64,000 nucleotides of DNA, taken from an uncultured Clostridium sp. Lineage in GTDB: Bacteria > Bacillota > Clostridia > TANB77 > CAG-508. The position numbers and the translations under genes are program-made. Below the pieces are notes generated by a model. That model did no database searches and was not told where the DNA came from. It saw only the letters and a program-made list of their open reading frames with translations. Of the stretch, positions 2,056 to 27,966 are shown one piece after another (the first letter of the stretch is position 1; each line of letters begins with the position of its first letter). The stretch spans positions 57,961-121,960 of the forward strand of contig CAMBEE010000002.1 of NCBI GenBank assembly GCA_945865665.1. The letters run 5' to 3'.

Positions 2056-2334
2056 GCGGGAGAAAAGAAGGAAAAAAAGAAACAGCAAAAAAACTATTAA
2101 AAATGGGAATGAAAGTTGAACAAATTATAGAAGCAACAGGACTAACAAAAGAAGAAATAGAAAAATTATAAAAAAATCAAAAGTGAATTCAATATAGTAG
2201 AAATTAAAAAATATCTATTATATTGGATTCATTTTTTTAGCAACACAAAAATCAAAATAAATATTGCAAAAAAAACAAAAAACTGATATAACATATGTAA
2301 CAAAACAAAGGAAAATATAATGCCTTGAGAAAGG

Positions 2335-3525: not shown

Positions 3526-3552
3526 TCAACATATATAAAAAATTTATAATCC

Positions 3553-4173: not shown

Positions 4174-4179
4174 ATAAAA

Positions 4180-4206
4180 AAGCGCAAATTTATTGCGTTT
4201 TTTTTT
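4180..4206 (+). terminator. rho-independent terminator after cvpA
   Basis: Stem aagcgcaa/ttgcgttt followed by a T-run of 9. Confidence 0.6.
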
Positions 4207-4258
4207 GATTTTTGTTATACTATTAACAAATTTGATACACAAATCAGGAGTGGTTATT

Positions 4259-8261: not shown

Positions 8262-8475
8262 AAATGTTGAAATCCGTAGTATTTTGAAAAAATTTAACAC
8301 AAATGTTACAAAATCTTAATATAAATGTTTTATAAAATAAAAGAAACTCTCAAAATCAATATCCGTAGATATAGAAGTAATGCCGCTGACAAATGACTCC
8401 AAAAGTACTATTGAAAAGAAAAAAAGAATTTATTAAAATAAAATCAACTATAATTATGAAAAAGGAGAAACAATT

Positions 8476-11400
8476 ATGATTAGTAAAATCGTAAGAGGAA
8501 AAGACAAATTTATCGTAATTGCATTAATTATGACATCAATTATTGGTGCGTTAGTTGGAAAAATATATTCAACCAACAATAATCATTATGTAGTTGATGT
8601 TACAAATGCCGCTGGAGAAAGCAAAGACAATAATTTACAGGTTACAGAAAAAATTGTAAAAGGTGCAGGAGCACAATATTTTGATTCAAAAGAATTAAAT
8701 TATGAAGTTGAATTAAAAAATATTGGACAAGCTGAAAATGTTGAAACTCAAGTTGCAATAGTTACAGACTTTTCATATAGTATGGAAACAAATGATACTA
8801 ATAATGTAGTAAGAGGTAAAGCTATTGATTTAGCAAATGGAATAATAACAAACGTTAAGAATTCAAGAGTTTCTATATCTAATAATAATGCATTGAAACT
8901 ATCTATGACAACAAATACATCAGCAATAAGCAGCACAATAAATTCTTTAAACTATGGAGAAGGAAACGACAGTAATCAAGGATTAGACAATGCCAATAGT
9001 AGCTTTACAACGCCAGCAGTTGCCGGAAATACTATAAATAAATATATAGTAGTATTTACAGATGCTACAGATGATGTTTCAGAAAAAATGAAACAGTTAA
9101 CAACAGATGATCCGAATTTACATATAATTTCTATATTGGTAGATATGACTAGTACTTCTTATGTAGTAAATGATTTAGCTGTATGTGGAGAAGTATATTT
9201 ACTTTTAAGCGGAGTTTCTGCTGATGACGTAAATTCAAATATTGAAATGCTTGATTTACAAAAAATATATGATAACATGAACAAATCTACAAATAATATT
9301 GAAGTAACAAATGAATTCTCTGATGAAGTACAAAAATATTTTAGCATATCTGATTTAACAGTTGACAATGGAAATGTAACTCAAACTGCAAAAGGATATA
9401 TATGGAATATTGACAGAATTAGATATCAAGATACTGCAAAATTAAAATTCAAATTAACATTAAAAACAAATGTTGATATAGATGCAGGTATAATATTTAA
9501 AGATATCTTTACAAATAAAGAACAAAATATTTCATATACAGCAGAAGAAAACACATTAACATTAAATGGAACAGATGCAAGAGGGGGAACATCAGCAACT
9601 ACTCTTAAGATTTGCCAAGGCTATGATTTAAAAATAAAGGCAGTAAATGAATCTAATACAGATTTACCAGTAGACGGAATAGATGTTAAAGTAGTGGGTA
9701 TAAAAACTAATGATGATGGAAGTGAAGAAGAGGAAGTATGCAATATTACTAAAAAGACAGATAGCAATGGATATATAACAATCACACCAGATGATGCGAG
9801 AGCTTTAAGATTGGATGGAGAAATAACATTTACTGTTACACCAACCGTAGATAAAGTAGGATATTCATATACAAACCCTGTAACATTTACATATAATAAT
9901 AATGTTACAACGAAAAATATAGAATGGGTTGAAACAGGAAGTGGATTAAATCACGAAGAAAAAGAAACTGAAAGAGTTGCAGAAGTTGTTGTGCCAATTA
10001 ATAGTCAAAAATCTGATCTTGAGCTAAGAGTAGAAGAATTAAATAATAGTAATGCATTAGTTCCAGGATCAACATTTGAATTAATACAACCAAAATTAAA
10101 TAATAAATACGAAATGGATGTATTATCAGCTACAACAGATGACAAAGGCGCAATTCATTTTGCACCAACAGTTATGACAAAAGATGGAACATATAATTAC
10201 ATTCTAAGACAAGTGTCAGCACCAGATGGATATGAACTAACACCACTAACATTAATTACAATAGAATATAAAAATGGAAAAATAGTACGAAAACCAGCAA
10301 CACAATTTAACGAAAATATTGTAAGTACAGAATTATGTACAGATGTAGAAAATCATACATTAATAGTAGTTGGATTAAAGAACTTAAAACAAGATCCATT
10401 TGATTTAGAAATTAATTTATCAGATAGGGCAGATGGAACAAAGATAGATGGAGTTACATATTTAATAGAAACAATAGGAAGAGATGGAGTATCCAGTCCT
10501 GTATATGCTACAACAGATTCAAATGGACAAGTTAAGATAAAATGCTATGGTGATGGAGCATTGAAAATAAAAATAACAGAACAATCACCAAAAGTTGGAT
10601 ATGTTGCAGATACAAAAACAAAAGTATTAGACATTTCTAGAAATAATAAAAAAATTGAAGTTTGGGTAAATGAAGATAAATTAGATATAGATCAAGATGC
10701 AAACAAAGAAAACCTAATAATAAAGTTAAATAGCCAAAAGAAAGCAGAACGAAATGTAGTTAAAATTAATTTGGTAGATTCTAATGAAACTGATGTACCA
10801 GTTGGAGCTGGGGTTACATATGAATTAGTAAATACTGAAACAGGAGTAAGTTATGGTAAAGTTGTATCTAATAGGAACGGAGAATTATCATTTACAATTG
10901 ATAACAATACAATAGGGGACCATACTTATAAATTAGTTGTAGATAAAAATTCATTACCAGCCGAATATGAAAATGCAACAAATTCTCAAGATGTTGATTT
11001 TAATATACATTTTGACAAAGATGGATATATTGACGGTATAAACGCAACAAATGGAGATCAAATTACAATTGATGAACATTCATCATCAGTTAATAGTGAT
11101 GACAGTGTTGAATATACAGCATTTTTAAAATTAGCATATGAACTAAACATTGATAATACAGCAGATTTCAAAATTCAATTATTAGACCATGAAGATTTAA
11201 TGACACCAATCGATGGAGCATCATATAATGTTGATATTGAATGGACTGTAAACGGAATCACAAGAACAAAAACAATCAAAGGAAGAAAAACAAATGCATC
11301 AGGACAAATAACAACTAAAATAATAAAAGTAAATAGTGTAAAATTAACAGTTACACAAGTAGGTGCAAAAACTGGATATGGAATAGATAACACAACACAA

Positions 11401-14400
11401 GAAATAGAATTAACATATAATACTAGTGGAGCTTTAGTAGGAATTAGCCAATCACCATATGATAAAGGTGATACAAACACAGATGAACCAAATCAAGGAG
11501 CTTATAAAGATCCAGCTAATACAAACAATGTTATTTATCAACATTTAAATAGAAAGAGAACAACAGAAGACACATATTTAAACTTAACTATAACAAAACA
11601 AGACATGAATAATGCATATAAAGACGGAGTTATATTAAATATAAAATCAAGTTCATTATTAGACAAAGAAGGCAATGGATTAGATTTAATAGTAAGGACT
11701 GGGCAACAAGGTGATTCAGGGGTATACACATTTGATTATGGATCATATCTACAAAATAAAATAGATAATGATACAATTAGAGTACCTGGTATAGGAGAAG
11801 AAGGAAACGAAATAGTTTACGACTTAGAAATAACAGAAATGAATGTGGACAGCACTAGTGATACAGGATACTCACCTAAAAAAGGCACAACATTTAAAGC
11901 TAGACTAATATTTAAATATAGAGATGGAAGCGTAAAATTAACAAGTGTTGAACCATACTATGGTAATAGATTATTAGTACATGATCCAATATATTCAAGT
12001 TCTTCTGACACAGAACAAGGACAACAAGATGAAGATTCTATGGGAGTATATTTAGCAAACATAACACTTAATTTAAAAACAGATTATGATGATGTTGGTA
12101 ATTTATCATTAGACTTAAAAAAAGAAGATATAAATGAAGAACCACTTATTGGAGCAAAATATAATTTAAAAGTTACAAACCCTGATGGTACAGTTATTAG
12201 AAAAAATGATATTTTAGTAAAAAATGGAAGCTCAAACATCGAAATATCAGGATTAAATGTAAATGTAGGTAGTACAATTGAATTAAACGAAGTAGAAGCA
12301 CCAATAGGATATGGAATAAATAAAAACACAGAAGTACTAGAAGTAACAGCAATTGGTGATGATGGAGAAATAACATTAGAAAGAAAAGATGCAACAACAG
12401 ATAGATTAAAACTAGTTAAAATGGCAGCAACGACAACTACAGCCGGAACATTAAAAACAAATTATGAAATATCATTCGTAGATTATCAATTGGATACATT
12501 TGGATTTGGAATAAAAGCTATAGACTCAAATTCAAATAAAGGAGTTGATAGATATTCATTTAATGTTGACTCAAGTAAAGGAGCAACAGGAACATTGACA
12601 ACTGATTCAGACGGAAATGGAAGTACAAGAGTTGGAGGCAGTATTGAAAGCAACACTATTGAATATACAATTTCAACAAATCATGTTGCAGATTACTATA
12701 AACCATTAAATAGCAATATAAAAGTAAACGTTGTATTTAATGCGGCAGGAGCAATTGATATTGCAGCAACTCAAAATGCACAAACTGATCCAAACTATAA
12801 TACTTTATGGAAAATTAAAAATCTAGTTCAAAGCAATGATGAATTTAATTTTGGTAAAATTGATATTGAAATTTTAGTAGATCATCAGGAACCATTAAAT
12901 GTAAAAGTAGAAACTATTGACAAGATAACAAATACTAAAGTTTCAGATGTTCAATATAAAATAACACCATCAGAAGAATTACCAGCAACAGGTTCAGACT
13001 CAATAAATGTAGGATATGTATTAGAAAATGGAATGCTAACATATACGTTATCACAAACAAACATCAAAAATTCATATGCAAAATTAGAAGAAAAAGACTT
13101 TAAAGTAACATACAGTAATGAAAATATAATGAATGCTGAATTTACAAAAGATAATGTAAAAGATGATACAATAACTGTAACAGGAAACAAACAAGTAACA
13201 GTCAAAGTATATGTAGAGCCAAAAGTACCATTTGAAATAACAAATTTATATTATTTCAATAATAATACAAAATTACAAGGATCAAATTTTGAAGTTACAG
13301 AAGTAAAATCAGAAGATGTTGGAACAGGAACAACAGATGCAAATGGAATTTCTGGAATATACTCTGGAATATTAGGAGCAGATGAGGATGTAACATACAA
13401 AGTAAAACAAACATTAGGAGCATCAGGGTATGCAACAGTAGACGATTTCTACATTAAAGTACATTATAATGCAGATAGAGAAATAACATCAGCAAAATTA
13501 GTTGACAGTAATGGAGAAGATGTTTCAACAAATAAATTTGTAACAGTAGGATTTACAAAAACATCAACATTCTCAACATATAATTCTAATAATAAAGGAA
13601 TTGTAACAATACAAGTACTAAACTATCCTGAATTTAAAATAAATATTGACAATGTTGATAGAAGAGATGGAACAACAAAAATTGCAGGAACAGAATATAG
13701 CGTAACATCACAATATACAACAAGTGATAACAAACAAGTTGACTTTATGAGCACAAAAGGAGTTATAACAAACAGTAATGGATTAGGAGTTGCACACTTA
13801 GATAAAACAAAAGAAAACACAATTGTTACATATACAGTAAAAGAAGATATACCAGCAATTGGATATCAATCATTAGGTACAGAAATTAAAGTAAAAGTTA
13901 CATTTGATGGAGATGGGTATGTAAGCAATGTTGAAGTAGAAAATGATAGCAACTTAAATAAAATAGAGTCAGTAAGTAGAATACAACCAATTACAGACCC
14001 AGCTGATAACTTTGTTGTAAATTTACAACTTAAAAATAATCCTATATTAAAATTCAATTTAACAGCAGAAGACAGTGCAGACCATAGTGTGAAAATTAAA
14101 GACTTAGGATTTACGATTGTAAGTACATTTGAAGATACAGTATATTCAAACTCATCTGCGACAAATAAAGTAAATCAAACAGAAAATCCAGAAACATCAT
14201 ATACAGATATAAATGGATATACAGCATCATATTTAGATAGAACTTTAGACAATAAAGACATGTATTATACAATTAAAGAAGTACAAAAAGCACCAGGATA
14301 TGATTGGGCAGGTAAAGACATAATAATAAAAGTAACATATGATTCAGACGGAAAGATTGATTCAATAACACCAGTACAAGGTGGAGAATTAATAAATATT

Positions 14401-17400
14401 TCATCTTTTGATAAAGACAATTTCGAGATAAATATGGAAATATACAACGATGAAATAAAATCATTTGGAATCAATTTATCAGCAGTAGACACATATGATG
14501 CAAATAAGAAAATAAGCAACATGAAAGTAAATGCTTTCTTAACTGAAGAAGGAAACACAAATTATACTAAACCAGATGATGATTATAAATTGATGGATGA
14601 AAATTCACTATTAACAGGTGCCGACAGAAACAATGATGGAAAACCAGATATAGCACAAGGTGAAGACTATAAAACAATGGGACAATATAATAAAGGAGCT
14701 GGAACAAGAACATTAAGATTAGTTGTATTAAATGATACAAGTAAAGATAACGAAAAAGCAGCATATTATCTTGATAGTGCAGATGACACAAATTCTGGTA
14801 ATAATGTTGGATATTATAAAGGAGCAAAATATTACAAAGACGCTAAATATCAAAATGTAAGATATCAATACTTAATAAATGTAACATTTGATGATGAAGG
14901 AAAAATAACAGATGCAAAACTACAAACAGGATTAAATCCTTATGTAGGATGGCTAGTTGACAATAGATATATACAAACACAAGAAGATGGTGTAAGCTTA
15001 GATCATACAGACTACAGATTAAATATTACAATGAAGTTTTTCCCAATGTTAGACTTAAAATTAAATGCAATGGATAATTACACATATCAAAATGAAATTA
15101 GCAAAGATGGACAACCAATTGCTCTAGAAGGAAGTAAATATACAGTTACAACATTAAGACACAATGAATCCGCAAGAGAAGAAGATGAATTAGTAACAGC
15201 TGGATATATTGGATATGGTACATCATATGGATATTATGGAGCATTAGCACAAGCAGATTACTATGAAGCAACAGATGAATTATTTGTACCAATTGAAAAC
15301 AACCATACAAGATTGTTCTATGTATTTGAGGAGATGGAACCAACAAATTATCAAAAATATACAGATAGATATTTGACAATATATAGTCAAAAATTAGTTG
15401 CAATTATACAAGTAACATTTGATGAATATGGGGAAATCAATTATGACAAATCAATAGTAAGGAACGTTAATGATACAGAAATAAAACCATATGTTGCAGA
15501 AGATGGTAGCACATATCTATCAAGCAATAATATACAAGAATATAATTATTACTATGACAAAACAGAAGCAAATAGAAATATTAATTTCTATATAGGATAT
15601 GGATTAACGACAAAAATTAATGTAACAGCAGTAGATGATATATCAAGTTCACCAATATCAAATATAAGAATGACACCATTTATAAATGACACATATTGCA
15701 CAAACACATCATATGAATACAACACAAATGGTTATAGAGACACAAATAGTAGTGGACAATTCGATATTAAATATTGGGGAGCAGCAACACAAGATAACGT
15801 AAATAAATATATTATTGGTTCATCAAGATATGGAGACAACTATAACGGATATATGTTCCCATCAGATATGGCAAGTACAAGCCTAAATGGAAGTGGCAAT
15901 GAACAAGACTACTATGCTAATTTAGATATTTCTTATGATAGTAATGGTAAAATATCACAAGTAAAATCAGTCGGATCAGATTTATGGGGAGATGACAACG
16001 TTTCAAATATTACATGGGACAGTGAAACAGGCAATGTATATATTAACATGCTATATAGTAGAAAATTCCAAATGACATTAAATAAAACAGATTACTATGA
16101 CAGTACTATAAATAAATTAGTAGCCAAATTTGATGTAATATCAGATAAAGGACTAAAAACGAGTATAAATTCAAAACAAACAAGTGATGTTTCAAGAGAA
16201 TTAACACCAATTGGAAAAGTATATGCAAATAAAACAATAAAATATACATTATCTGAAACACAAGTACCTGAAGGATACTATCCATTACAAGACACAATAG
16301 ATTACTATGTAACATTTGATAAAAATGGAAATGTAGGAACAAATAGTGTCAAATCAACAAGCGATTATTTTGAAATTGTAAGTACAAGTGATAACACTGA
16401 AAAAGTAAATAAAACATCACCAGACTTAACAATAAATGTAAAGAATAAACCAGCATTTAATTTTGGTTTAAGGGTAATAGATCAATTCTATAAAAATGAT
16501 GGAATATCAGATGTTTATTTAAAAATAACAAATAGCAAAGGTGATGTAGCATTAGGAAATCCTCAAACAGATGCAAACGGATATGCAACTGTTGTAACAG
16601 GACCAGTATATCCAAAAGAAACTGTAAAATATTATATAAGTCAAACAAATACAGCAGATGGATATTATCAAAATTCAGCCACAATAGAATTAGAAGTTAA
16701 ATTTAATGATATTGGAAAAGTTGAAGCTTATAAGATATTAAACGGAAATGAAGTTATAAATAACTTTAATTCTACAGCGTATATGAACACAAGACAAATA
16801 AATATGCAAATAATGAATATGCCAAAAGACTTAAAGATTGGCTTATACAAATATGATAAAACAACAAATTCACCTATGGCAGGAGTAAAATTCACAATAA
16901 CAAAAGAAGATGTAAATTCCGGAGTAAAAACTTCAAAACAAATTACAACAGAAAATGATGGAAATGTAGTACAAGCAATAGATACTTTTGAAACATCAAT
17001 TTCTGGAAAAACTATAAAATATACAATACACGAAGATGAAACACCAGCATCATATAGAACAATGGAAGATATAGTATTTATAATTAGATATAATGCAGAT
17101 GGAAGTATTGCATCAGCTAACCAAGTACAAAATGACAACGGCGTACTATCAGAAATTAAACCAGAAATAGCAATTGGAACAATTAAAAAATTAGATGATA
17201 AAAGAGTACATTTTGCTATAAATGCTCCAAATGATAATGCATATGATTTAATAATTAAAAATGAGGATATAAATTATTCTGGATTTGGAATAAAAGATTC
17301 AGAATTTGATGTAAGCATTAATGGAACAAAATATATACCAGAATTAACAAATGAAGAAGGAGAAACAAGCTTAAAAGACTTAACACAATCTGGAGATATA

Positions 17401-20400: not shown

Positions 20401-21000
20401 GGAGACACATATACTCTAAATCAAAGTATTACGTTATATGCAGTATGGGAAGAAAATCTATATTTGAAATCAACAGAATATGTAATTTCAGATGATACAA
20501 AATATGTAACAGATGCACAATTAAATGAAAACAAATATGAAAATGGAGATACATACATCTTGGGAATAAATCCAAAGTTAACAATAGAAGACGAAGCAAA
20601 CGCAAATGAATGGACAAAAGGAACAAAATTAGAAGACTTTATAAATAACATTCAAACAAATGCTGACAACGTAAAATTATATGATACAGAAAATAAAGAA
20701 ATTACAACAGAAGACAAGTATATAGGAACAGGAATGACAGTAGAATTTATAAAAGGAAATCAAACACCAATAAGACTTACAATTATAGCGAGAGGTGATC
20801 TAAATGGAGACGGTATATTGAACTTAAACGATATAACCAAAGCAAAAAGATATATTAAAAAAGACGAGACATCAATATTAGACACTGTAATTAAAAAACT
20901 AGCATTTGATACAAACTTAGATGGAAAACTAAATATGAGAGACTCTAATAATATGCAACGTGCACAAAGTAACGATGATATTAGAAAATTAGATAATTAG
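8476..21000 (+). CDS. giant (4174 aa) surface adhesin: signal/anchor, VWA domain, ~20 Cna-B/SpaA-like repeats, one InlB-B (Flg_new) repeat, conserved pre-dockerin module, type-I-like dockerin
   Basis: MIDAS-type DxSxS (DFSYSM, 8766-8783). About 20 recurring Y…(E/Q)xxAPxGY modules, e.g. VSAPDGYEL, LNAPEGYLKL, IVAPEGYAKI, ITPPEGYNPI. B-repeat YTIHYDAN…GYIFKGWAT…ITLYAVW. C-terminal duplicated Ca-binding loops GDLNGDGILNLND … DTNLDGKLNMRD. Strong RBS. Confidence 0.85.
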   Translation: MISKIVRGKDKFIVIALIMTSIIGALVGKIYSTNNNHYVVDVTNAAGESKDNNLQVTEKIVKGAGAQYFDSKELNYEVELKNIGQAENVETQVAIVTDFSYSMETNDTNNVVRGKAIDLANGIITNVKNSRVSISNNNALKLSMTTNTSAISSTINSLNYGEGNDSNQGLDNANSSFTTPAVAGNTINKYIVVFTDATDDVSEKMKQLTTDDPNLHIISILVDMTSTSYVVNDLAVCGEVYLLLSGVSADDVNSNIEMLDLQKIYDNMNKSTNNIEVTNEFSDEVQKYFSISDLTVDNGNVTQTAKGYIWNIDRIRYQDTAKLKFKLTLKTNVDIDAGIIFKDIFTNKEQNISYTAEENTLTLNGTDARGGTSATTLKICQGYDLKIKAVNESNTDLPVDGIDVKVVGIKTNDDGSEEEEVCNITKKTDSNGYITITPDDARALRLDGEITFTVTPTVDKVGYSYTNPVTFTYNNNVTTKNIEWVETGSGLNHEEKETERVAEVVVPINSQKSDLELRVEELNNSNALVPGSTFELIQPKLNNKYEMDVLSATTDDKGAIHFAPTVMTKDGTYNYILRQVSAPDGYELTPLTLITIEYKNGKIVRKPATQFNENIVSTELCTDVENHTLIVVGLKNLKQDPFDLEINLSDRADGTKIDGVTYLIETIGRDGVSSPVYATTDSNGQVKIKCYGDGALKIKITEQSPKVGYVADTKTKVLDISRNNKKIEVWVNEDKLDIDQDANKENLIIKLNSQKKAERNVVKINLVDSNETDVPVGAGVTYELVNTETGVSYGKVVSNRNGELSFTIDNNTIGDHTYKLVVDKNSLPAEYENATNSQDVDFNIHFDKDGYIDGINATNGDQITIDEHSSSVNSDDSVEYTAFLKLAYELNIDNTADFKIQLLDHEDLMTPIDGASYNVDIEWTVNGITRTKTIKGRKTNASGQITTKIIKVNSVKLTVTQVGAKTGYGIDNTTQEIELTYNTSGALVGISQSPYDKGDTNTDEPNQGAYKDPANTNNVIYQHLNRKRTTEDTYLNLTITKQDMNNAYKDGVILNIKSSSLLDKEGNGLDLIVRTGQQGDSGVYTFDYGSYLQNKIDNDTIRVPGIGEEGNEIVYDLEITEMNVDSTSDTGYSPKKGTTFKARLIFKYRDGSVKLTSVEPYYGNRLLVHDPIYSSSSDTEQGQQDEDSMGVYLANITLNLKTDYDDVGNLSLDLKKEDINEEPLIGAKYNLKVTNPDGTVIRKNDILVKNGSSNIEISGLNVNVGSTIELNEVEAPIGYGINKNTEVLEVTAIGDDGEITLERKDATTDRLKLVKMAATTTTAGTLKTNYEISFVDYQLDTFGFGIKAIDSNSNKGVDRYSFNVDSSKGATGTLTTDSDGNGSTRVGGSIESNTIEYTISTNHVADYYKPLNSNIKVNVVFNAAGAIDIAATQNAQTDPNYNTLWKIKNLVQSNDEFNFGKIDIEILVDHQEPLNVKVETIDKITNTKVSDVQYKITPSEELPATGSDSINVGYVLENGMLTYTLSQTNIKNSYAKLEEKDFKVTYSNENIMNAEFTKDNVKDDTITVTGNKQVTVKVYVEPKVPFEITNLYYFNNNTKLQGSNFEVTEVKSEDVGTGTTDANGISGIYSGILGADEDVTYKVKQTLGASGYATVDDFYIKVHYNADREITSAKLVDSNGEDVSTNKFVTVGFTKTSTFSTYNSNNKGIVTIQVLNYPEFKINIDNVDRRDGTTKIAGTEYSVTSQYTTSDNKQVDFMSTKGVITNSNGLGVAHLDKTKENTIVTYTVKEDIPAIGYQSLGTEIKVKVTFDGDGYVSNVEVENDSNLNKIESVSRIQPITDPADNFVVNLQLKNNPILKFNLTAEDSADHSVKIKDLGFTIVSTFEDTVYSNSSATNKVNQTENPETSYTDINGYTASYLDRTLDNKDMYYTIKEVQKAPGYDWAGKDIIIKVTYDSDGKIDSITPVQGGELINISSFDKDNFEINMEIYNDEIKSFGINLSAVDTYDANKKISNMKVNAFLTEEGNTNYTKPDDDYKLMDENSLLTGADRNNDGKPDIAQGEDYKTMGQYNKGAGTRTLRLVVLNDTSKDNEKAAYYLDSADDTNSGNNVGYYKGAKYYKDAKYQNVRYQYLINVTFDDEGKITDAKLQTGLNPYVGWLVDNRYIQTQEDGVSLDHTDYRLNITMKFFPMLDLKLNAMDNYTYQNEISKDGQPIALEGSKYTVTTLRHNESAREEDELVTAGYIGYGTSYGYYGALAQADYYEATDELFVPIENNHTRLFYVFEEMEPTNYQKYTDRYLTIYSQKLVAIIQVTFDEYGEINYDKSIVRNVNDTEIKPYVAEDGSTYLSSNNIQEYNYYYDKTEANRNINFYIGYGLTTKINVTAVDDISSSPISNIRMTPFINDTYCTNTSYEYNTNGYRDTNSSGQFDIKYWGAATQDNVNKYIIGSSRYGDNYNGYMFPSDMASTSLNGSGNEQDYYANLDISYDSNGKISQVKSVGSDLWGDDNVSNITWDSETGNVYINMLYSRKFQMTLNKTDYYDSTINKLVAKFDVISDKGLKTSINSKQTSDVSRELTPIGKVYANKTIKYTLSETQVPEGYYPLQDTIDYYVTFDKNGNVGTNSVKSTSDYFEIVSTSDNTEKVNKTSPDLTINVKNKPAFNFGLRVIDQFYKNDGISDVYLKITNSKGDVALGNPQTDANGYATVVTGPVYPKETVKYYISQTNTADGYYQNSATIELEVKFNDIGKVEAYKILNGNEVINNFNSTAYMNTRQINMQIMNMPKDLKIGLYKYDKTTNSPMAGVKFTITKEDVNSGVKTSKQITTENDGNVVQAIDTFETSISGKTIKYTIHEDETPASYRTMEDIVFIIRYNADGSIASANQVQNDNGVLSEIKPEIAIGTIKKLDDKRVHFAINAPNDNAYDLIIKNEDINYSGFGIKDSEFDVSINGTKYIPELTNEEGETSLKDLTQSGDITIKIAQKEVGDGYKSDIDNKVEINLVKGVDVYSIDLKPTTNGYVDDKNATTTKAVIVVDETYGTITVTFKNETKTEITLFKQDINTNAALKNAEFKVTAQQVDDSGSNIGSGITLTTNDNKITDSNGQIHFDLGVAPQSQIWKYTFEEITPPEGYNPIADLVMTVKYDQYGRISEQKSNKESRLKPTTEHPENENCRNMYAIIKNGDVSPAYTVKVVTEDVDTGKRISGSEILMNITKEDGSLIEVEPKTSASATNGSTSITGNLGIDGTMYTDEEVENPKVDTPSIVEKGLTYIDNIDYEGTINIDISQQKAATGYIFGNQKTSTDEGQDIKINTKYVPHLDEDPTVEFTIIDNDGFEVRTDDVNRIITIVVKNESQVSFDIVTELFHSDLEEEKHYISGVNYNITSEILTATNSIPTDLNATTPLSDEKGETKENVGKAYAGKTVLYTLHQNIPLGYRTIDDIQIEVQYDSRGYIKYYEMLSSEDNAYINEENTTKRTIALVVRNKKDIENYVIYVEKHAKDTDEDEDAYQRKLPNAKYQITVNQQYGAPKTVSWVDVTDENGEIRSAPFNGYGYISAQIKELEAPEGYELDEGVKYVSLYRNQDTGEFKEDVANEAFTGVDNNIEYDSAGNRIIRILPKNEQQKDKFTMVINKISKETGKYITDNQANFKVELKQTNDEGEITYYDTLIENAYTDKNGKLVMDNLQMPGEAGEYKLVITELNAPEGYLKLSEPVEIPVTFGTDSAGNIVIISANTIGNGLENISASKVDKQILGINVGNEVDNGLKDDEYSLDITKVDAKTGEAIENMAIFKVQLPDENNTSVYTETKETLLGPGKLDYCYIEQDKDYTVRLTHMKKPTEPGIYVYKFKEIVAPEGYAKIDDEFELSIEFAIDEETGKMYIKDVNSSNEDYLRINTEAPYDIEKPISIDILNNEDKGEQYTIHYDANDNGEGITAPADQIKDKDVDLQLSAEELSRTGYIFKGWATLPNATTPDFKAGDTYTLNQSITLYAVWEENLYLKSTEYVISDDTKYVTDAQLNENKYENGDTYILGINPKLTIEDEANANEWTKGTKLEDFINNIQTNADNVKLYDTENKEITTEDKYIGTGMTVEFIKGNQTPIRLTIIARGDLNGDGILNLNDITKAKRYIKKDETSILDTVIKKLAFDTNLDGKLNMRDSNNMQRAQSNDDIRKLDN

Positions 21001-21011
21001 GAGGAAAAAAG

Positions 21012-21968
21012 ATGAAAAAGGTTATAAAAAATATAATAATATTAATAACTATACTGCTTATAATATTGATTTTTATAATATCGAAGAATACAAGTGTACA
21101 AGCAGCAGATAATGGAACTATTAAATTAAATGTGAAAAATGAAAACTTTACACCAGGAGGAACTGTAGCAGTAGAAATACTGCTACAGGACCAAAAACAA
21201 GGAATTTCATCATTTACTGCATATTTCCATTATGATGAGAACATATTTGAAAAAATCAACAGTAGCAATATAGAAAGTGATGCATCAGAAGAAGAATTAG
21301 ACTCAATTGACTATGGTGATGAAACAGGAAAAATTTCTGTATATTATAATGATGATATATCTAATATAGGAAAAATATGTACTGTAAATTTGAAAATAAA
21401 AAGCGATATAGATATAAGTACTATAACATCATTTACAACATCAGTAGGTAAAGTTGAAGCATTCTCATATGAGCATGATAATTTAGCAGATTACGGAACA
21501 ATAACAGAAACTACAACTATTAAACAACAACCATCAGAAAAATTATATTTATCAAGTGAAACATACAAAATAGGGGATAATGACATTAAAAATTACGAAG
21601 ATGGAGATAAATATATTTCAAGAGTTGAACAAAAAACAATGTTAAAAGATTATATAAATAATTTGGAAACAAATGGAATAATAGTAGTAACTAAAGAAGA
21701 TGGAACTGTATTAACATCAGATGAGTATGTAGGAACAGGAATGACATTAACTGTAACAAAAGATGAAGAAAAAATAGAATTAAAGATAGCAGTAACAGGA
21801 GACTTAGATGGAAATGGAAAAATAACAGCAACAGATTTATCAACAATGAACCAAACAATTTTGAAATTGGTAACATTAGAAAATGAATACAAAATTGCTG
21901 CAGACCTAGACGAAAATGGAAAAGTAACAGCAACAGACTTCTCAGCACTAAATCAAATGTTATTGTAA
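21012..21968 (+). CDS. secreted cohesin-domain + dockerin-domain protein (318 aa)
   Basis: Signal peptide. Cohesin-like GTIKLNVKNENFTPGGTVAVEILLQDQKQGISSFTAYFHYDENIFEKI. The same pre-dockerin module (LYLSSETYKIGDNDIKNYEDGDKYI…VGTGMTL). Dockerin GDLDGNGKITATDLS…ADLDENGKVTATDFS. The RBS overlaps the stop of the giant gene. Confidence 0.8.
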   Translation: MKKVIKNIIILITILLIILIFIISKNTSVQAADNGTIKLNVKNENFTPGGTVAVEILLQDQKQGISSFTAYFHYDENIFEKINSSNIESDASEEELDSIDYGDETGKISVYYNDDISNIGKICTVNLKIKSDIDISTITSFTTSVGKVEAFSYEHDNLADYGTITETTTIKQQPSEKLYLSSETYKIGDNDIKNYEDGDKYISRVEQKTMLKDYINNLETNGIIVVTKEDGTVLTSDEYVGTGMTLTVTKDEEKIELKIAVTGDLDGNGKITATDLSTMNQTILKLVTLENEYKIAADLDENGKVTATDFSALNQMLL

Positions 21969-21980
21969 ATAAAAGTATAG

Positions 21981-22010
21981 CACTCGTAAACTCTTACGGG
22001 TGTTATATTT
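21981..22010 (+). terminator. rho-independent terminator
   Basis: Stem cactcgtaa-actc-ttacgggtg followed by a T-rich tract. Confidence 0.6.
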
Positions 22011-22323
22011 TGCCCATTTTTTTAATTTTAATGCTATATGCTTTTTCTGTGATTGTAATGTGGTCTTTTTAAAAATTATACCGTCTGATTGAAATGAAAA
22101 ATAGATAATCTTAAATAAAAAAACAATGTAACAAACTTGTAATATAAATATAATATTTAAGTAATAAAAAACGTATATTAAGCTTCCGCAAGAGGAAAAA
22201 AGACATAACAAGCAAAACAAAAAAACCACCACTTGAACAAATAAAATAAAAATGTTACAGTAAAACAAGGAAAAGAGAACAAAAAAATTATGTTGAAATA
22301 ACTATAATAAAAGGAGGATAAAA

Positions 22324-25300
22324 ATGAAAGAAAGGAATCAGTTAGCAACTAAAATATTATCAATGATATTAATAGTAGTATTTATTTTTCCAATAATAGT
22401 ACCACTAAAAAGTAATGCAACCGGACTAACAGTAACATTAGACACAAATGATACACAAATAAAAGCAGGACAAAAAATATGTGTAAATGTATACGTTACA
22501 GGAGATTCAATAGCAAGCTTTACATGTTATCCATCATTTGATAAAAATATATTTAATGATATAAGTTCTTCTAGTCTTGTAGTTCCAAGTGGATTAAAAG
22601 ACCAAGGAAATGGAAGTTGGAAAGCGTCATATTCTAGTTCAAACAACAAAATAACAGTAGAGGAAAATGACGGCAGTTATTTTACAATTCCAAATGGAGG
22701 ATTATTATTTTCAATTAATCTAGTAGCTAAAATTGATACATCTACAACAACAATAAAATTAAAAACAGTTGAATCAGATGGAGAAAACGATTATTACAGT
22801 ATTGCAGAAGTATCAGGGACAATACCAAAAGCTGCTCCAGCAACATATAGCATTACATATAATCAAAATACAGTAGATATAGTTAACAATATGCCATCAG
22901 CAGGACAAAAAACACATGGAACAAACTATACAATACCATCAACAGTGCCAACAAGAACAGGATACACATTTGCTGGATGGACTACAAATAGTAGTGGAAC
23001 AGGAACAAATTATTCAGCAGGAGGTTCATATACTACAGATGCAGATACAACATTTTATGCAAAATGGACAGCAAAACAAACAACGTTAACAGTAAATCCA
23101 AATGGAGGAACATGGGATGGTAGTTCATCTACACAAACATTTACACAAAATTATAATTCAACAAAAACAATAAATAATCCAACAAGAACACCAAATGGAC
23201 ATACAGTTAGATTCAATACTAATGGAGGAACAAGCACGGATTCATTACAACAAGTACAAACAACAGTATTTACTGGATGGAACAAAACTGGAGGAGGAAG
23301 CTTGAGTTCAACAACATATACATTTGGAGATAGCAATGGAACATTAACAGCACAATATGAAGGACAAGCAATAACATTACCAAATGCAACAAAAACAGGA
23401 GCGACATTAAAAGGATGGTTTACAGCTCAAACAGGAGGAACACCAGTTGGGGGAGCAGGAACAAGTTGGACACCTTCATCAGATACAACATTATTTGCAC
23501 AATGGAATGAAGTAGATTACACATTAACAGTAAATCCAAATGGAGGAACTTGGAAAGGTAGTACTGCAACACAAAATGTTACAGGAAATTATACTTCAAC
23601 AACCACAGTACCAAATCCAACAGCACCAAATGGGTATGAAGTAACTTTAAATAATGATGGAACAACATCAACGGTTACACAAACAAAAACATTTACAGCA
23701 TGGACATTATCTGGAAAAGGAAGAATAGATGGAACAACATATACATTTGGAGATGGTAATGGAACATTGACAGCACAATATACACCAAACAGTGTAACAT
23801 TATCAACACCAACAAAACCAGGATATACATTTGATGGATGGTATACAGCATCAACAGGTGGAAACAAAGTAACTTCACCATATACACCAACAAATAATGT
23901 AACATTATATGCAAGATGGACAGCTAATAAATACACAATAACATTTGATGGAAATGGTGTAGCAGTAACGCCATCAACAAAACAAGTTACATATGGACAA
24001 ACATATGGAACATTACCAGCACCAACAAAACCAGGTTATACATTTAATGGATGGTACAATGGTGGAAACAAAGTACAATCAACAGATACAGTAGACATTA
24101 CAGGAAATACAACATTAACAGCACAATGGATAGGAGCAGAATACACAGTTTACTTTAACCCAGACGGAGGAAATGTAAGCCCAACAAGTAAAAAAGTAAA
24201 CAATGAAGGACAATATGGAGCATTGCCAACACCAACAAAAACAGGATATACATTTGCAGGTTGGTATAAAGATGGAACAAAGATAGAAAGCACAACCAAA
24301 GTAGAAACAACAACAGATATTACATTAAAAGCAAAATGGACTGCTATAAAATCAACATTAACAGTAAATCCAAATGGAGGAATTTGGGATGGTAGTTCAT
24401 CTTCACAAACATTTACACAAGATTATAATACAACAAAAACAATAAATAATCCAAGTAAAAATGTAGATGGGTGTAGAGTGACATTTGATGGAAATGGAGG
24501 AACTGCACAAACAGTAGCTATAACGCAAACAACAACATTCACAGGATGGACACTATCTGGAAAAGGAAGTTTTGGAGGAACAACATATACATTTGGAGAT
24601 GGTAATGGAACATTGACAGCTAACTATTCAGGTGAAAATATAACATTACCAAACGCGACAAAAACAGGGGCAACATTAAAAGGTTGGTACACATCAACAA
24701 CAGGAGGAACACCAGTAGGTGGTGCTGGAGATATTTGGAAACCATCAACAGACATAACTTTATATGCACAATGGAATGAAACAAATTACACATTAACAGT
24801 AGATCCTAATGGAGGAACATGGAATGGAAGTTCTGCACAACAAACGGTAACAGGAACATACAATGAGCAAAAACAAATACCAAATCCAACAGCACCAAAT
24901 GGATATATAGTAACATTGAATAATGATGGAACAACAACACAGATTACACAAACAAAAACATTTACTGTATGGAAACAATCTGGAAAAGGAAGTATAAATG
25001 GAACAACATATACATTTGGAGATGGTAATGGAACAATAACAGCTCAATATACAGAAAATAATGTAACACTACCAACACCAGCAAAAACAGGATATACATT
25101 TGATGGATGGTATACAGCATCAACAGGGGGAAATAAAGTAACTTCACCATATACACCAACAAATGATATAACATTATATGCAAGATGGACAGCAAATCAA
25201 TACAGAATAACATTTGATGCAGATGGAGGAAATGTAACACCTTCAACAAAACAAGTAACATATGACCAAAAATATGGAGAATTACCAACACCAACAAAAA

Positions 25301-27177
25301 CAGGATATACATTTGAAGGGTGGTTTATGGATGATTCAACACAAATAACAAGTAATGACACAGTAAAAATAACAGAAGACAAAACATTAAAAGCACACTG
25401 GCAAGGAGCTACGTATACATTAACAGTAAATCCAAATGGTGGAACATGGAATGGAAGTTCTGCACAACAAACTGTTACAGGAACATACAATGCAACAAAA
25501 ACAATAGCAAATCCAACAGCACCAAGTGGATATACAGTAACCTTAAATAATGATGGAACAACAACACAGATTACACAAACAAAAACATTCACAGGTTGGA
25601 CATCATCTGGAAAAGGAAGCATAAGTGATACAACATATACATTTGGAGATGGTGATGGAACAATTACAGCACAATATAAAGACGATGATGTAACATTGCC
25701 AGAACCAACAAAAACAGGATATACATTTGATGGATGGTATACAGCAGCAACAGGAGGAGACAAAGTAAACACATCATATAAACCAACAAATAATATAACG
25801 TTATATGCAAGATGGACAGCTAATAAATATAAAGTAACATTTGATGGAAATGGAGCAACTGGAATACCTACATCAAAAGATGTAACATATGGAGAAAAAT
25901 ACGGAGAATTACCAACACCAACAAAAGATGGATATGAATTTGATGGATGGTATAAAGAAGACGGAACAAAAGTAACAGAAGATGACATAGTAGATATAAC
26001 AGAAGAAACAAAACTAACAGCAGGATGGCTAGGGGCAGAATATACAGTAAACTTTGATGCCGATGGCGGAAATACAAGTGTAACTAGCAAAAAAGTAAAA
26101 AATGGTGGAAAATATGGAGAGTTACCAACACCAACAAAAGAAGGATATACGTTTGTTGGATGGTATGATACAGAAAACAACAAAATAGAAAGTACAACAA
26201 CAGCAAATATCTCATCAGATGTGACATTAAAAGCAAAATACGAAAAAAATAAATATAACGTAACATTTAAAAATGATGATGGAAGTACATTATATACAAC
26301 AGTAGTACAATACGAAGATAAAGCAGAATTCTCTGGAAAAGAACCAACATCAACTAAAAATACACCAGGATATAAAGCTAAATTCAAAGGCTGGAGTAAT
26401 CAGCCAGCATTAGATAAAGTAACAGGAGATACAACAGTAACAGCAACTTATGAATTATCACCAATACAATACAAAATTTCATATAACAATACAAAAGATG
26501 GTGACAATTCACAAAACCCAACAAGTTACACTATCGAAGATAAAAACATAACCTTGAAAAATTTAGAAGACAAAGAAAATTCAAAATTCTTAGGATGGTA
26601 TGATAAAGCCGTTGGAGGAAATAAAATAACAAGTATAGATACATCAAAATTGGAAAATATAATATTATACGCACAATGGGAAAAAGATGAATTATATTTA
26701 AAATCAGAAAAATATAAAATTGGTGAAAATGATATTGACAACTATGAACAAGGTGATATATATTTAGATAAAATAGAACCAAATACAACACTAAAAGATT
26801 TTATTGCAAATTGTGACACAAACGGAGATATAACAGTAATTAATAGTGAAGGCAAAGAGTTATCAGATGACGACTTAGTTGGAACAGGTATGACAATGAA
26901 AGTCAAAAGATATGATGAAGAAATAACCCTAACATTGGTTGTAATGGGTGATTTAGACGGAGACGGAAAAGTAACAGCAGTAGACTTGTCAACATTAAAT
27001 CAAGTAATATTAAAAACAACAAAGTTAGAAAATGCTGAATTTAAAGCCGCTGACTTAGACGACAGTAAAAAAATAACAGCAACAGACTTATCAACAATAA
27101 ATGATACTATTTTAGGAAATATTACATTAACATATAATAAAAATCAGCAAAATAATACTGGTATTACTAGTTTATAA
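22324..27177 (+). CDS. secreted cohesin / ~18x InlB-B (Listeria-Bacteroides, Flg_new) repeat / dockerin protein (1617 aa)
   Basis: Signal peptide. Cohesin-like LTVTLDTNDTQIKAGQKICVNVYVTGDSIASFTCYPSFDKNIFNDI. Repeated …P(T/A)PTK(T/P)GYTF(D/A/N)GWY…(L/F)YA(R/K/Q)W units. C-terminal LYLKSEKYKIGENDIDNYEQGDIYL… module plus GDLDGDGKVTAVDLS…ADLDDSKKITATDLS. Confidence 0.85.
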   Translation: MKERNQLATKILSMILIVVFIFPIIVPLKSNATGLTVTLDTNDTQIKAGQKICVNVYVTGDSIASFTCYPSFDKNIFNDISSSSLVVPSGLKDQGNGSWKASYSSSNNKITVEENDGSYFTIPNGGLLFSINLVAKIDTSTTTIKLKTVESDGENDYYSIAEVSGTIPKAAPATYSITYNQNTVDIVNNMPSAGQKTHGTNYTIPSTVPTRTGYTFAGWTTNSSGTGTNYSAGGSYTTDADTTFYAKWTAKQTTLTVNPNGGTWDGSSSTQTFTQNYNSTKTINNPTRTPNGHTVRFNTNGGTSTDSLQQVQTTVFTGWNKTGGGSLSSTTYTFGDSNGTLTAQYEGQAITLPNATKTGATLKGWFTAQTGGTPVGGAGTSWTPSSDTTLFAQWNEVDYTLTVNPNGGTWKGSTATQNVTGNYTSTTTVPNPTAPNGYEVTLNNDGTTSTVTQTKTFTAWTLSGKGRIDGTTYTFGDGNGTLTAQYTPNSVTLSTPTKPGYTFDGWYTASTGGNKVTSPYTPTNNVTLYARWTANKYTITFDGNGVAVTPSTKQVTYGQTYGTLPAPTKPGYTFNGWYNGGNKVQSTDTVDITGNTTLTAQWIGAEYTVYFNPDGGNVSPTSKKVNNEGQYGALPTPTKTGYTFAGWYKDGTKIESTTKVETTTDITLKAKWTAIKSTLTVNPNGGIWDGSSSSQTFTQDYNTTKTINNPSKNVDGCRVTFDGNGGTAQTVAITQTTTFTGWTLSGKGSFGGTTYTFGDGNGTLTANYSGENITLPNATKTGATLKGWYTSTTGGTPVGGAGDIWKPSTDITLYAQWNETNYTLTVDPNGGTWNGSSAQQTVTGTYNEQKQIPNPTAPNGYIVTLNNDGTTTQITQTKTFTVWKQSGKGSINGTTYTFGDGNGTITAQYTENNVTLPTPAKTGYTFDGWYTASTGGNKVTSPYTPTNDITLYARWTANQYRITFDADGGNVTPSTKQVTYDQKYGELPTPTKTGYTFEGWFMDDSTQITSNDTVKITEDKTLKAHWQGATYTLTVNPNGGTWNGSSAQQTVTGTYNATKTIANPTAPSGYTVTLNNDGTTTQITQTKTFTGWTSSGKGSISDTTYTFGDGDGTITAQYKDDDVTLPEPTKTGYTFDGWYTAATGGDKVNTSYKPTNNITLYARWTANKYKVTFDGNGATGIPTSKDVTYGEKYGELPTPTKDGYEFDGWYKEDGTKVTEDDIVDITEETKLTAGWLGAEYTVNFDADGGNTSVTSKKVKNGGKYGELPTPTKEGYTFVGWYDTENNKIESTTTANISSDVTLKAKYEKNKYNVTFKNDDGSTLYTTVVQYEDKAEFSGKEPTSTKNTPGYKAKFKGWSNQPALDKVTGDTTVTATYELSPIQYKISYNNTKDGDNSQNPTSYTIEDKNITLKNLEDKENSKFLGWYDKAVGGNKITSIDTSKLENIILYAQWEKDELYLKSEKYKIGENDIDNYEQGDIYLDKIEPNTTLKDFIANCDTNGDITVINSEGKELSDDDLVGTGMTMKVKRYDEEITLTLVVMGDLDGDGKVTAVDLSTLNQVILKTTKLENAEFKAADLDDSKKITATDLSTINDTILGNITLTYNKNQQNNTGITSL

Positions 27178-27197
27178 TAAAAGAAAGGAGTTTTAAA

Positions 27198-27926
27198 ATG
27201 AAAAACAATACAAAATTAAAATCAATTATTGCAATTGCTTTAATTATGATGATAATAGCATTATGTACAGGAGTAAATGCAGCAACAGGGGAGGCATATT
27301 CAGTAGGAATGTCATTAACAAGTAATTCAAAACTAAATGCAGGAGACACAGTAACAGTTAGTGTTAACTTAACAAGTGTAAATGCAGGAAATGGTATTGA
27401 TACAATTACAGCAGAATTAGATTATGATACTAATGTATTTGAAGCAATATCATCATCAGATTTTACAGCAAGTAGCGGTTGGAAAGCACCATCATATGCA
27501 GCATCATCAAAAATGTTGACATTACAAAAAGATTCTAAAGTAAAAGCTGCAGAAACAGTTTTCACAATAAGCTTAAAAGTTAAGAATCCAGTTAATGTTG
27601 ATTCAACAAAAATAAGCTTAAAAGACATAACAGCATCAGGTGGTAGAGTATCAGATGGTGGAACAGGTGATATAACAGTAAATAATGCATCTGTAACAAT
27701 TAGCAAAACTAAAGATGCATCAAGCAACACAGAAACACCAACACCAACTCCAACACCATCAACAACTACAAACAATACTACTGTAAAAGATACAACAACT
27801 ACAAAAAAGACAACATTACCAAAAACAGGGTTAGGACAAGCTGGAGTTATAGCAATAGTAGTTGTAGCAATAATAGGAATATTTAGCTATGCTTTATATA
27901 AAAAAATTGCAAAAGATGTAAAATAA
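27198..27926 (+). CDS. LPXTG cell-wall-anchored cohesin-domain protein (candidate anchoring scaffoldin)
   Basis: Signal peptide (…CTGVNA/A). Cohesin-like YSVGMSLTSNSKLNAGDTVTVSVNLTSVNAGNGIDTITAELDYDTNVFEAI. TPTPTPTPSTTT linker. LPKTG (27816-27830) followed by a hydrophobic helix and a KKIAKDVK tail. Confidence 0.85.
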   Translation: MKNNTKLKSIIAIALIMMIIALCTGVNAATGEAYSVGMSLTSNSKLNAGDTVTVSVNLTSVNAGNGIDTITAELDYDTNVFEAISSSDFTASSGWKAPSYAASSKMLTLQKDSKVKAAETVFTISLKVKNPVNVDSTKISLKDITASGGRVSDGGTGDITVNNASVTISKTKDASSNTETPTPTPTPSTTTNNTTVKDTTTTKKTTLPKTGLGQAGVIAIVVVAIIGIFSYALYKKIAKDVK

Positions 27927-27938
27927 AACATATAGATA

Positions 27939-27966
27939 AAAACTGAGAGCAAAATCTCAGTTTTTT
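27939..27966 (+). terminator. rho-independent terminator
   Basis: aaaactgaga-gcaaaa-tctcagtttttt. Confidence 0.7.

Follow-up and report, generated by a model that had tools for sequence, protein, structure and literature searches.

Four genes on the forward strand of a 64-kb stretch of DNA from an uncultured Clostridium (contig CAMBEE010000002.1; hereafter the window, with a G+C content of ~28%) occupy positions 8476-27926 and encode proteins with a total of three dockerins, as many cohesins and a single LPKTG sorting signal. Cohesin-dockerin pairs have been studied almost entirely as organisers of enzymes. From the domain content of these proteins, and from the way their modules vary among related gut genomes, we consider it probable that the four genes specify a closed, non-enzymatic, three-link cohesin-dockerin tether that would hold a giant adhesin out from the cell.

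P-numbers and coordinates refer to the window, whereas L-numbers denote related loci from a contig collection. A preliminary description of the DNA had placed the four open reading frames (ORFs) at exactly the positions given here, with lengths in amino acids (aa):

8476..21000, + strand: P1, putative secreted giant adhesin, 4174 aa; leader, VWA head, SpaA-like rod, Flg_new repeat, X module and dockerin
21012..21968, + strand: P2, putative short adaptor, 318 aa; signal peptide, cohesin (residues 33-172), X module (178-261) and dockerin (262-318)
22324..27177, + strand: P3, putative long adaptor, 1617 aa; signal peptide, cohesin (~34-170), Flg_new region (175-1450), X module (1457-1540) and dockerin (1541-1600)
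27198..27926, + strand: P4, putative anchor, 242 aa; signal peptide, cohesin (38-167), Thr/Pro-rich linker, LPKTG, transmembrane helix and basic tail
27816-27830, + strand: LPKTG sorting signal of P4, residues 207-211

We infer the following binding steps, together with sortase attachment, surface exposure and adhesion through the VWA head. After secretion, P4 would be joined covalently to peptidoglycan by a sortase acting on its LPKTG motif, leaving one cohesin exposed. That cohesin would bind the C-terminal X module-dockerin pair (X-Doc) of either P2, which is short, or P3, which is extended by a Flg_new rod, and the N-terminal cohesin of P2 or P3 would bind the C-terminal X-Doc of P1. P1 would then project ~19 SpaA-like modules from the cell; because each joint pairs a C-terminal dockerin with an N-terminal cohesin, its N-terminal VWA head, with a motif like that of a metal ion-dependent adhesion site (MIDAS), would lie outermost, as the ligand-binding tip. 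All of the scaffold proteins are monovalent, so the product would be a linear tether with no multiplexing scaffold, in which P2 and P3 seem to be a choice between a shorter and a longer adaptor and not two links in succession. Two tiers of connectors can be distinguished: a conserved, putative anchoring tier, made up of the P4 cohesin with the X-Docs of P2 and P3, and a putative cargo tier (the P2 and P3 cohesins and the P1 X-Doc), of which close relatives have at least five matched types that diverge from one another.

The evidence was computed, and consists of domain identities, conservation of the cluster, a predicted X-Doc dyad and co-variation of modules. It favours the wiring proposed in the preliminary description, from an LPXTG-anchored cohesin through a cohesin-dockerin intermediate to the giant adhesin, since co-variation links the P4 cohesin to the dockerins of P2 and P3, and the P1 X-Doc to their cohesins. 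If confirmed, the tether would represent a conserved, enzyme-free use of cohesins and dockerins in prevalent uncultured gut Clostridia, with the mounting of a ~4000-residue adhesin as the apparent purpose of the connectors, and it suggests a mode by which these uncultured organisms attach in the gut.

Domain composition of the four proteins

P1, P2, P3 and P4 alike begin with a hydrophobic leader. The polarity of their modules is uniform: all cohesins are N-terminal, all dockerins are C-terminal, and the sorting signal is found on P4 only. The C-terminus of P4 reads LPKTG-LGQAGVIAIVVVAIIGIFSYALY-KKIAKDVK, in which a hydrophobic helix is followed by a KK-rich tail, and the protein has the sequence features of a sortase-anchored surface protein (LPXTG, hydrophobic helix and positive tail). 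The LPKTG anchor assigned earlier to the 242-aa protein is also retained among relatives, as all six P4 orthologues that we read carry LPKTG, IPKTG or LPKAG at this site.

Three cohesins had been claimed. Those of P2 (26.9 bits) and P4 (36.5 bits) scored above the gathering cutoff of the Pfam Cohesin model (PF00963, 24.1 bits). A model of full-length P2 generated with AlphaFold2 (AF2; predicted local distance difference test (pLDDT) 85.5, predicted template modelling score (pTM) 0.48) was searched with Foldseek; cohesins ranked first, with 2vo8 as the best single-domain match (TM-score 0.78, root-mean-square deviation (rmsd) 2.8). The matches also included the ScaE/CohE structures 4iu3, 9gvb and 8ajy and, among the weaker ones, the pilin structures 4hss, 8kb2 and 5mkc. 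The N-terminal module of P3, by contrast, did not match Pfam Cohesin even at E<=10, and a single-sequence phmmer search of the P3 N-terminus against the PDB gave no useful match. This module aligned with the cohesins of P4 (28% identity, BLASTP E=4e-9) and P2 (E=1e-6); a profile of five orthologues matched the PDB cohesins 5lxv (E=0.001) and 5g5d (E=0.011), and two of five P3 orthologues reached Pfam Cohesin themselves (best 9e-8). Through its orthologues and its alignment with P2 and P4, we accept the P3 module as a putative divergent cohesin. The P2 cohesin is strongly acidic (charge -8 to -19), the P1 dockerin is approximately neutral, and the P4 cohesin is mostly so.

The remainder of P3 upstream of its X module is a Flg_new region (Pfam, 454 bits). 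Our own iterated profiles resolved 13 clear repeats in it, and about five divergent ones were placed from spacing only; ~18 InlB-B repeats had been counted previously. An antisense ORF of 396 aa (25197-26387, - strand) lies wholly inside this region and most probably reflects the composition of the repeats, without being a true gene.

All three of the proposed dockerins were recovered with Pfam Dockerin_1, at 30.2 bits for P1 (residues 4107-4161; 22.9 bits in the whole protein), 51.8 bits for P2 (49.6 bits) and 39.9 bits for P3 (35 bits), the higher score in each case being that of a fragment. A motif scan found two D-x-[DN]-x-[DNS]-G loops in each dockerin. The profile matches, the tandem calcium loops and the fold of the P2 dockerin, described below, place them in the type I family (PF00404). 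Across the locus, Pfam searches of the window proteins supported the dockerins, SpaA, Flg_new and the cohesins of P2 and P4, but missed the P3 cohesin and left the VWA domain below threshold.

Directly before each of the three dockerins lies a conserved X module, which is 84 aa long in P2 and P3 and 110 aa long, with insertions, in P1. Pfam has no model for this module, and an NCBIfam search returned no specific family. When the P2 X-Doc was folded alone by AF2 from a 50-sequence alignment, the model reached a pLDDT of 97.2 and a pTM of 0.91; given this pTM, the X module and the type-I-like dockerin are predicted to pack into a rigid dyad. In Foldseek, the dockerin half superposed on the Clostridium thermocellum type I dockerin 1ohz_B (TM-score 0.93, rmsd 0.9 Å, 39% identity), and the X half matched no solved fold, type II and type III X modules included. 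Membership of the type II/III X-dockerin dyads was rejected, as no solved X module matched and Pfam lacks a model; the X module is analogous to the solved X modules and is not a member of their class.

A profile of the X module retrieved 418 clusters among 1.84 billion representatives, and in nearly every match the module ended ~55-160 residues from the C-terminus. A Pfam dockerin followed directly in ten of ten sampled members. The cargo domains of these ten proteins were Flg_new rods, a mucin-binding module, BspA-type and DUF285 leucine-rich repeats (LRRs), a SHIRT domain and a papain-like protease, with no plant-fibre glycoside hydrolase (GH) among them; outside the sample, the same X-Doc occurred on a GH73 glucosaminidase and on a BNR protein. 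A homologue search with the P1 X-Doc returned two fragments only. The X-like module adds an uncharacterised family to the cohesin-dockerin toolbox. One cultured organism carries it: Amedibacillus dolichus DSM 3991, a human-gut member of the Erysipelotrichaceae (L036:2337-4229, NZ_DS483477.1), encodes a 630-aa GH73 glucosaminidase with the same X-Doc dyad, followed by a gene for a Cadherin-like-domain protein, and may offer experimental access to the X-Doc family.

The modules of P1 are arranged from head to connector as follows:

8752..9066, + strand: VWA domain, residues 93-197, with a DxSxS MIDAS-like motif (Pfam VWA_2, orthologue fragments)
9700..20079, + strand: rod of 19 SpaA/Cna-B-like modules, residues 409-3868, period ~130 aa (Pfam SpaA and iterated profile)
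20227..20442, + strand: single Flg_new (InlB B-type) repeat before the X-Doc (Pfam, E=1e-11 on fragment)
20458..20787, + strand: X module, 110 aa, extended by two insertions compared with P2 and P3 (own profile, E=1.7e-35; alignment)
20788..20970, + strand: dockerin with two Ca-loop repeats, DLNGDGILNLND and DTNLDGKLNMRD (Pfam and motif scan); a variable, cargo-type dockerin

Pfam detected SpaA in P1 at E=5e-42, and our own iterated profile counted 19 SpaA-like modules at E<1e-8, close to the ~20 Cna-B-like modules estimated previously. The array is interrupted by ~600 aromatic- and Asn-rich residues (P1 ~1961-2557, window 14359-16146), a stretch in which we found neither a Pfam match nor a repeat signal and which could be a second binding domain. 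A VWA domain with a MIDAS had also been proposed, and here the support is divided. D98xS100xS102 is invariant across orthologues, the distal Asp is also conserved, and PF13519 and PF00092 match fragments of P1 orthologues. However, VWA_2 scored 26.4 bits in P1, just below the Pfam cutoff of 27, and the usual MIDAS Thr is not evident, its position reading GEGND. Searched against the PDB, a profile of this domain gave weak matches (E ~0.14), every one of them a VWA or integrin I-domain, and a single-sequence phmmer search with the P1 N-terminus gave no useful match. The only internal LPATG of P1 (~residue 1502) has no transmembrane segment after it, and a motif scan found no C-terminal LPXTG or pilin motif in this protein.

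All ORFs of the 64-kb window were scanned for cohesins, dockerins and LPXTG signals, and none was found beyond P1-P4. As in the preliminary description, which had reported no GH, carbohydrate-binding module (CBM) or other cellulosome cargo, P1-P4 contain no enzyme or CBM; we also found no GH or CBM elsewhere in the window. Our use of the term enzyme-free covers the window and the X-Doc-tagged proteins of related genomes.

Conservation and co-variation of the connectors in gut genomes

The genome comparison suggested in the preliminary description revealed that the four genes do occur together, and that the cluster is conserved, for the most part in synteny, across ~12 related species represented by gut metagenome-assembled genomes (MAGs). 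These are uncultured Clostridia from human (Clostridium sp. CAG:575, UMGS1516, HGM13651, Hadza), rabbit, mouse and goat guts, and the cluster is usually placed before the same AMP-binding and RsmF genes. The full four-gene set is present in L003, L010/L011, L012 and L021, and the P1-P2 pair also in L002, L004 and L022-L026; L037, from a mouse MAG, has P2-, P3- and P4-type ORFs together, and its sequence stops before the P1 position. In 11 of the 12 distinct related loci that we examined, all but L001, the gene next upstream of the P2 orthologue encodes a giant protein of 4125-4349 aa. The P2 family comprises 174 clusters at 90% identity, none of them named, and one P2 orthologue is present in 202 blocks of the contig collection.

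When each orthologue was compared with the window, the modules fell into two rate classes. The X modules and dockerins of P2 and P3 and the P4 cohesin were conserved (60-83% identity). The P1 X module and dockerin (25-46%), the P2 cohesin (17-27%) and the P3 cohesin (16-38%) were variable, in ranges that leave out the closest loci, L002 and L001. Between the genomes themselves, identity is only 14-48% for the P1 X-Doc and for the cohesins of P2 and P3; over the same genomes, the flanking AMP-binding protein is 86-97% identical. The P1 X-Docs can be divided into five or more sequence types, with the same grouping among the cohesins of P2 and P3. No variation was found in the residues of the Ca loops or in the X-Doc core.

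The comparison with L003 locates the change along the DNA, with nucleotide identities as follows:

up to ~20370: P1 body, mostly 80-99%
20520-21420: P1 X-Doc and P2 cohesin, 50-65%
21560-21860: P2 X-Doc, 76-83%
22012-22860: intergenic region and P3 cohesin, 56-70%

Between the window and L003, the P1 body is 88% identical, versus 42% for the connectors. Horizontal transfer of the P1 body was considered and set aside, because the flanking housekeeping protein of L003 is 96.8% identical to that of the window; by the same measure it is the connectors, and not the P1 body, that are the outliers.

Mantel tests linked the variable modules to one another. The P1 X-Doc co-varied with the P2 cohesin (r=0.92, p=2e-4, n=12) and with the P3 cohesin (r=0.83, p=2e-4, n=8), but not with the body of P1 (r=0.01, not significant (n.s.), n=12), and the variable modules did not follow the P2 X-Doc (r 0.05-0.19, n.s., n=8-12). 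Conversely, the P4 cohesin co-varied with the dockerins of P2 (r=0.88, p=0.005, n=8) and P3 (r=0.68, p=0.04, n=8), and its correlations with the P2 or P3 cohesin were negative (n.s., n=6-8). At helix positions 10/11, the P2 and P3 dockerins usually share the same residues within a genome (TATD, TITD, TPTD or TISD).

These correlations bear on models that would place P2 and P3 in series, either as a linear chain (P4 bound to P3, the P3 cohesin to the P2 dockerin and the P2 cohesin to P1) or as a non-covalent pilus of head-to-tail P2/P3 units with P1 at its tip. The N-cohesin/C-dockerin polarity of P2 and P3 fits such a chain, and the two dockerins are alike, so that either could enter any cohesin accepting that type. 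A cohesin for a conserved dockerin would, however, be expected to be conserved, as in P4, whereas the hypervariable P2 and P3 cohesins track the P1 X-Doc and not the conserved P2/P3 dockerins (r of -0.19 and -0.42 for the P3 and P2 cohesins, respectively, against the P3 X-Doc, and 0.05-0.09 against the P2 X-Doc). Homopolymer and serial-chain models were down-weighted because adaptor cohesins do not co-vary with adaptor dockerins, and the full-length P2 model, with its pTM of 0.48, offers no confident self-docked arrangement. We regard assembly in series as decidedly unlikely.

Several observations weigh against the tether with alternative adaptors. The variable modules lie within ~2.5 kb (20.4-22.9 kb), where linkage and recombination could mimic co-variation without interaction, and the correlations among conserved modules, at an n of only 8, may reflect shared descent. 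The VWA score is below threshold and the MIDAS Thr is not evident in P1, and no sortase TLxTC motif was found in the ORFs of the window. In L001, the closest relative (flanking protein 98.6% identical to that of the window), P1 has been deleted: P2, P3 and P4 are intact, the promoter region is retained, and at the junction (L001:9657-9931; compare window 8262-8490 and 20940-21011) the P1 start and a few codons are fused to its last ~15 codons. Since L001 keeps both adaptor cohesins without P1, either P1 is dispensable or these cohesins have other clients.

The contiguity of the variable modules, through which linkage can imitate co-evolution, would also suit a reading in which the modules no longer interact and serve as structural or Ca-binding domains of independent neighbouring surface proteins, with divergence arising from immune or phage pressure. 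Outside cellulosomes, cohesins and dockerins without a known function are common, and the literature speaks of 'single-cohesin proteins of unknown function' (PMC11557425). Yet the wall anchor is on P4 only, which would leave P1-P3 without retention unless docked; the more exposed P1 body is far better conserved than the connectors in the comparison with L003; the Ca-loop residues and X-Doc core do not vary; and the P2 and P3 dockerins usually change together within a genome. Taken with these points, loss of interaction seems very improbable.

A broader possibility is that the cluster forms the core of a general display scaffold, akin to a cellulosome, amylosome or mucinolysome, whose main clients would be dockerin-bearing enzymes encoded elsewhere, with P1 as only one client among them. 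Its gene order is like that of the ruminococcal sca cluster (adaptor, scaffoldin, X-Doc adhesin, LPXTG ScaE; PMC13463774), and the adaptor cohesins of L001 persist without P1. Moreover, the X-Doc of other lineages is found on a GH73 glucosaminidase, a papain-like protease, a BNR protein and a mucin-binding module, and a giant M26 protein of L021, described below, carries both a cohesin and a dockerin. Set against this, one cohesin per scaffold protein permits no multiplexing, the 64 kb contain no CBM, GH or other dockerin, no plant-fibre GH is among the ten sampled X-Doc cargoes, and P1-P2 adjacency is kept in all but one of the 12 related loci. In addition, an exact degenerate DNA pattern applied to 185,579 species found at most two P2/P3-type X-Docs per genome, a count that covers dockerins preceded by an X module of this type; the anchoring tier therefore appears to serve P2 and P3 only. 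A general scaffold is, on balance, unlikely.

Within the proposed tether, the diversity of the cargo tier invites a bolder and more doubtful suggestion, which we offer tentatively: the connectors may act as a hypervariable lock-and-key, in which at least five co-switching types, each incompatible with the others, circulate among near-identical gut strains and species and would privatise extracellular assembly for each strain. Because assembly would take place outside the cell, such type diversity would stop the capture of a secreted adhesin by neighbouring relatives. If this were true, a lineage could exchange adhesin bodies with the matched plug kept, and the system would represent a non-covalent, modular alternative to sortase pili. 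The matched and mismatched types from near-identical genomes also provide a natural panel for specificity determinants and for the design of orthogonal connectors.

Individual loci depart from the common arrangement. The P1 orthologues of L004 and L022 have a recognisable X module, but our own profile did not detect a dockerin in their last ~70 residues (GDLLSTGRTVGDGKV...), which may be a different kind of connector; the P2 cohesins of these two loci are the most divergent of all (15-21% identity to others, 36% to each other). In L021 (L021:19549-20999 and beyond; GCA_947628845.1, CANRBK010000001.1), a 4163-aa protein of the Peptidase_M26_C (IgA-protease) family is encoded directly downstream of the cluster; it starts with a cohesin (30-153, own profile) followed by a dockerin (246-295), and has no counterpart in the window. 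A goat colon MAG, RGIG2116 (L043:217-6696), encodes a 980-aa BspA-type LRR protein with an X-Doc directly upstream of a P2-like cohesin-X-Doc protein, which suggests that the adaptor also takes on other adhesin-like cargo; upstream of the LRR gene lies a gene for a BNR/Asp-box protein with a dockerin. Lastly, in L024 (L024:11185-13593) an ISL3-family transposase gene and a helix-turn-helix gene follow P2, and P3 and P4 are absent from the locus, so the cluster can be broken by insertion of a mobile element or by rearrangement.

Comparison with known cohesin-dockerin and pilus systems

The proposed assembly would work like ruminococcal ScaE anchoring and appears to be a new variant of ScaE/X-Doc-style attachment to the surface. 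The sca cluster comprises an LPXTG monovalent cohesin protein, ScaE, X-Doc clients that include the adhesin CttA, and ScaC-like monovalent adaptors (PMC13463774). ScaE of Ruminococcus flavefaciens and R. champanellensis, which binds the X-Docs of ScaB and CttA (PDB 4iu3), is likewise a sortase-anchored single cohesin at the base of its system. There, too, an X module is fused to the client dockerin and one client is a non-enzymatic adhesin, and monovalent ScaC-like cohesin-dockerin adaptors and clustering of the genes are further features in common (PMC13463774). Unlike the ScaE system, the present cluster has no multi-cohesin scaffoldin, CBM or enzymes, and its cargo tier is hypervariable; its X module lacks a structural match and its dockerin is type-I-like (1ohz_B), not type III. 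Whereas CttA is a cellulose binder, the adhesin here is a 4174-aa VWA/SpaA rod. The added interest lies in the undescribed X module and in the hypervariable, matched cargo-tier connectors. Classification as a cellulosome was rejected on the scaffoldin criterion, since none of the proteins carries more than one cohesin or a CBM.

The best structural matches to the P2 cohesin come from the NanJ, NagH and NagJ complexes of Clostridium perfringens (PDB 2vo8, 2w1n), which are also non-cellulosomal and belong to a gut-associated Clostridium-type host. The partners in those complexes are secreted glycoside hydrolases that pair mutually, and they include no LPXTG cohesin anchor, adaptor tier or adhesin cargo. 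The amylosome of R. bromii (PMC4611034) and the mucinolysome of Limousia (PMC12997984) are also cohesin-dockerin assemblies of gut Firmicutes that have turned from cellulose; both are multi-enzyme systems, whereas the only cargo identified here is an adhesin and the scaffold proteins are monovalent.

The proposed arrangement, with a putative VWA head on a SpaA-like rod, parallels VWA-tipped sortase pili (RrgA, GBS104, SpaC), which combine a VWA/MIDAS head, a Cna-B/SpaA shaft and an LPXTG protein that leads to the wall. The pili differ in their joints, which are isopeptide bonds made by sortase, in place of the non-covalent cohesin-dockerin joints proposed here, and the P1 shaft is one giant polypeptide without a C-terminal LPXTG or pilin motif and with no pilus sortase nearby. 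A sortase-assembled pilus was rejected as an identification, as P1-P3 lack a C-terminal LPXTG and there is no sortase gene in the vicinity. The preliminary description had not recognised this architecture as characterised, and our literature search found no description of a cohesin-dockerin system combined with a VWA/SpaA adhesin in this way.

Neighbouring genes and transcription signals

Upstream of the cluster, the window genes at 1264-2055, 2335-3525 and 4193-5647 include those for a PD-(D/E)XK family transposase, a DUF5711 beta-propeller-like protein and a LytR-CpsA-Psr wall-polymer ligase; no cohesin or dockerin was found in these genes (1264-5647). Three sites around P1-P4 resemble transcription signals:

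8411..8439, + strand: promoter-like site TTGAAA-17-TAAAAT upstream of P1 (consensus match only)
21972..22011, + strand: intrinsic terminator-like hairpin between P2 and P3, with an 18-pair stem and a T-run
27943..27966, + strand: hairpin CTGAGA-GCAAAA-TCTCAG, then TTTTTT, 3' of the P4 stop codon (direct sequence reading; the consensus scan did not report it)

The gaps before P2 and P4 are 11 and 20 nt long, and each holds a purine-rich stretch like a ribosome-binding site. The hairpin at 27943-27966 is likely to be the end of the second transcription unit. From the promoter-like site, the terminator, the short gaps and the terminal hairpin, the two operons described previously are plausible. 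The terminator had been placed at 21981-22010; a hairpin is indeed present there, and its stem extends over 21972-22011. L001 keeps the intergenic region with the promoter-like site, which would drive P2 in that locus after the deletion of P1.

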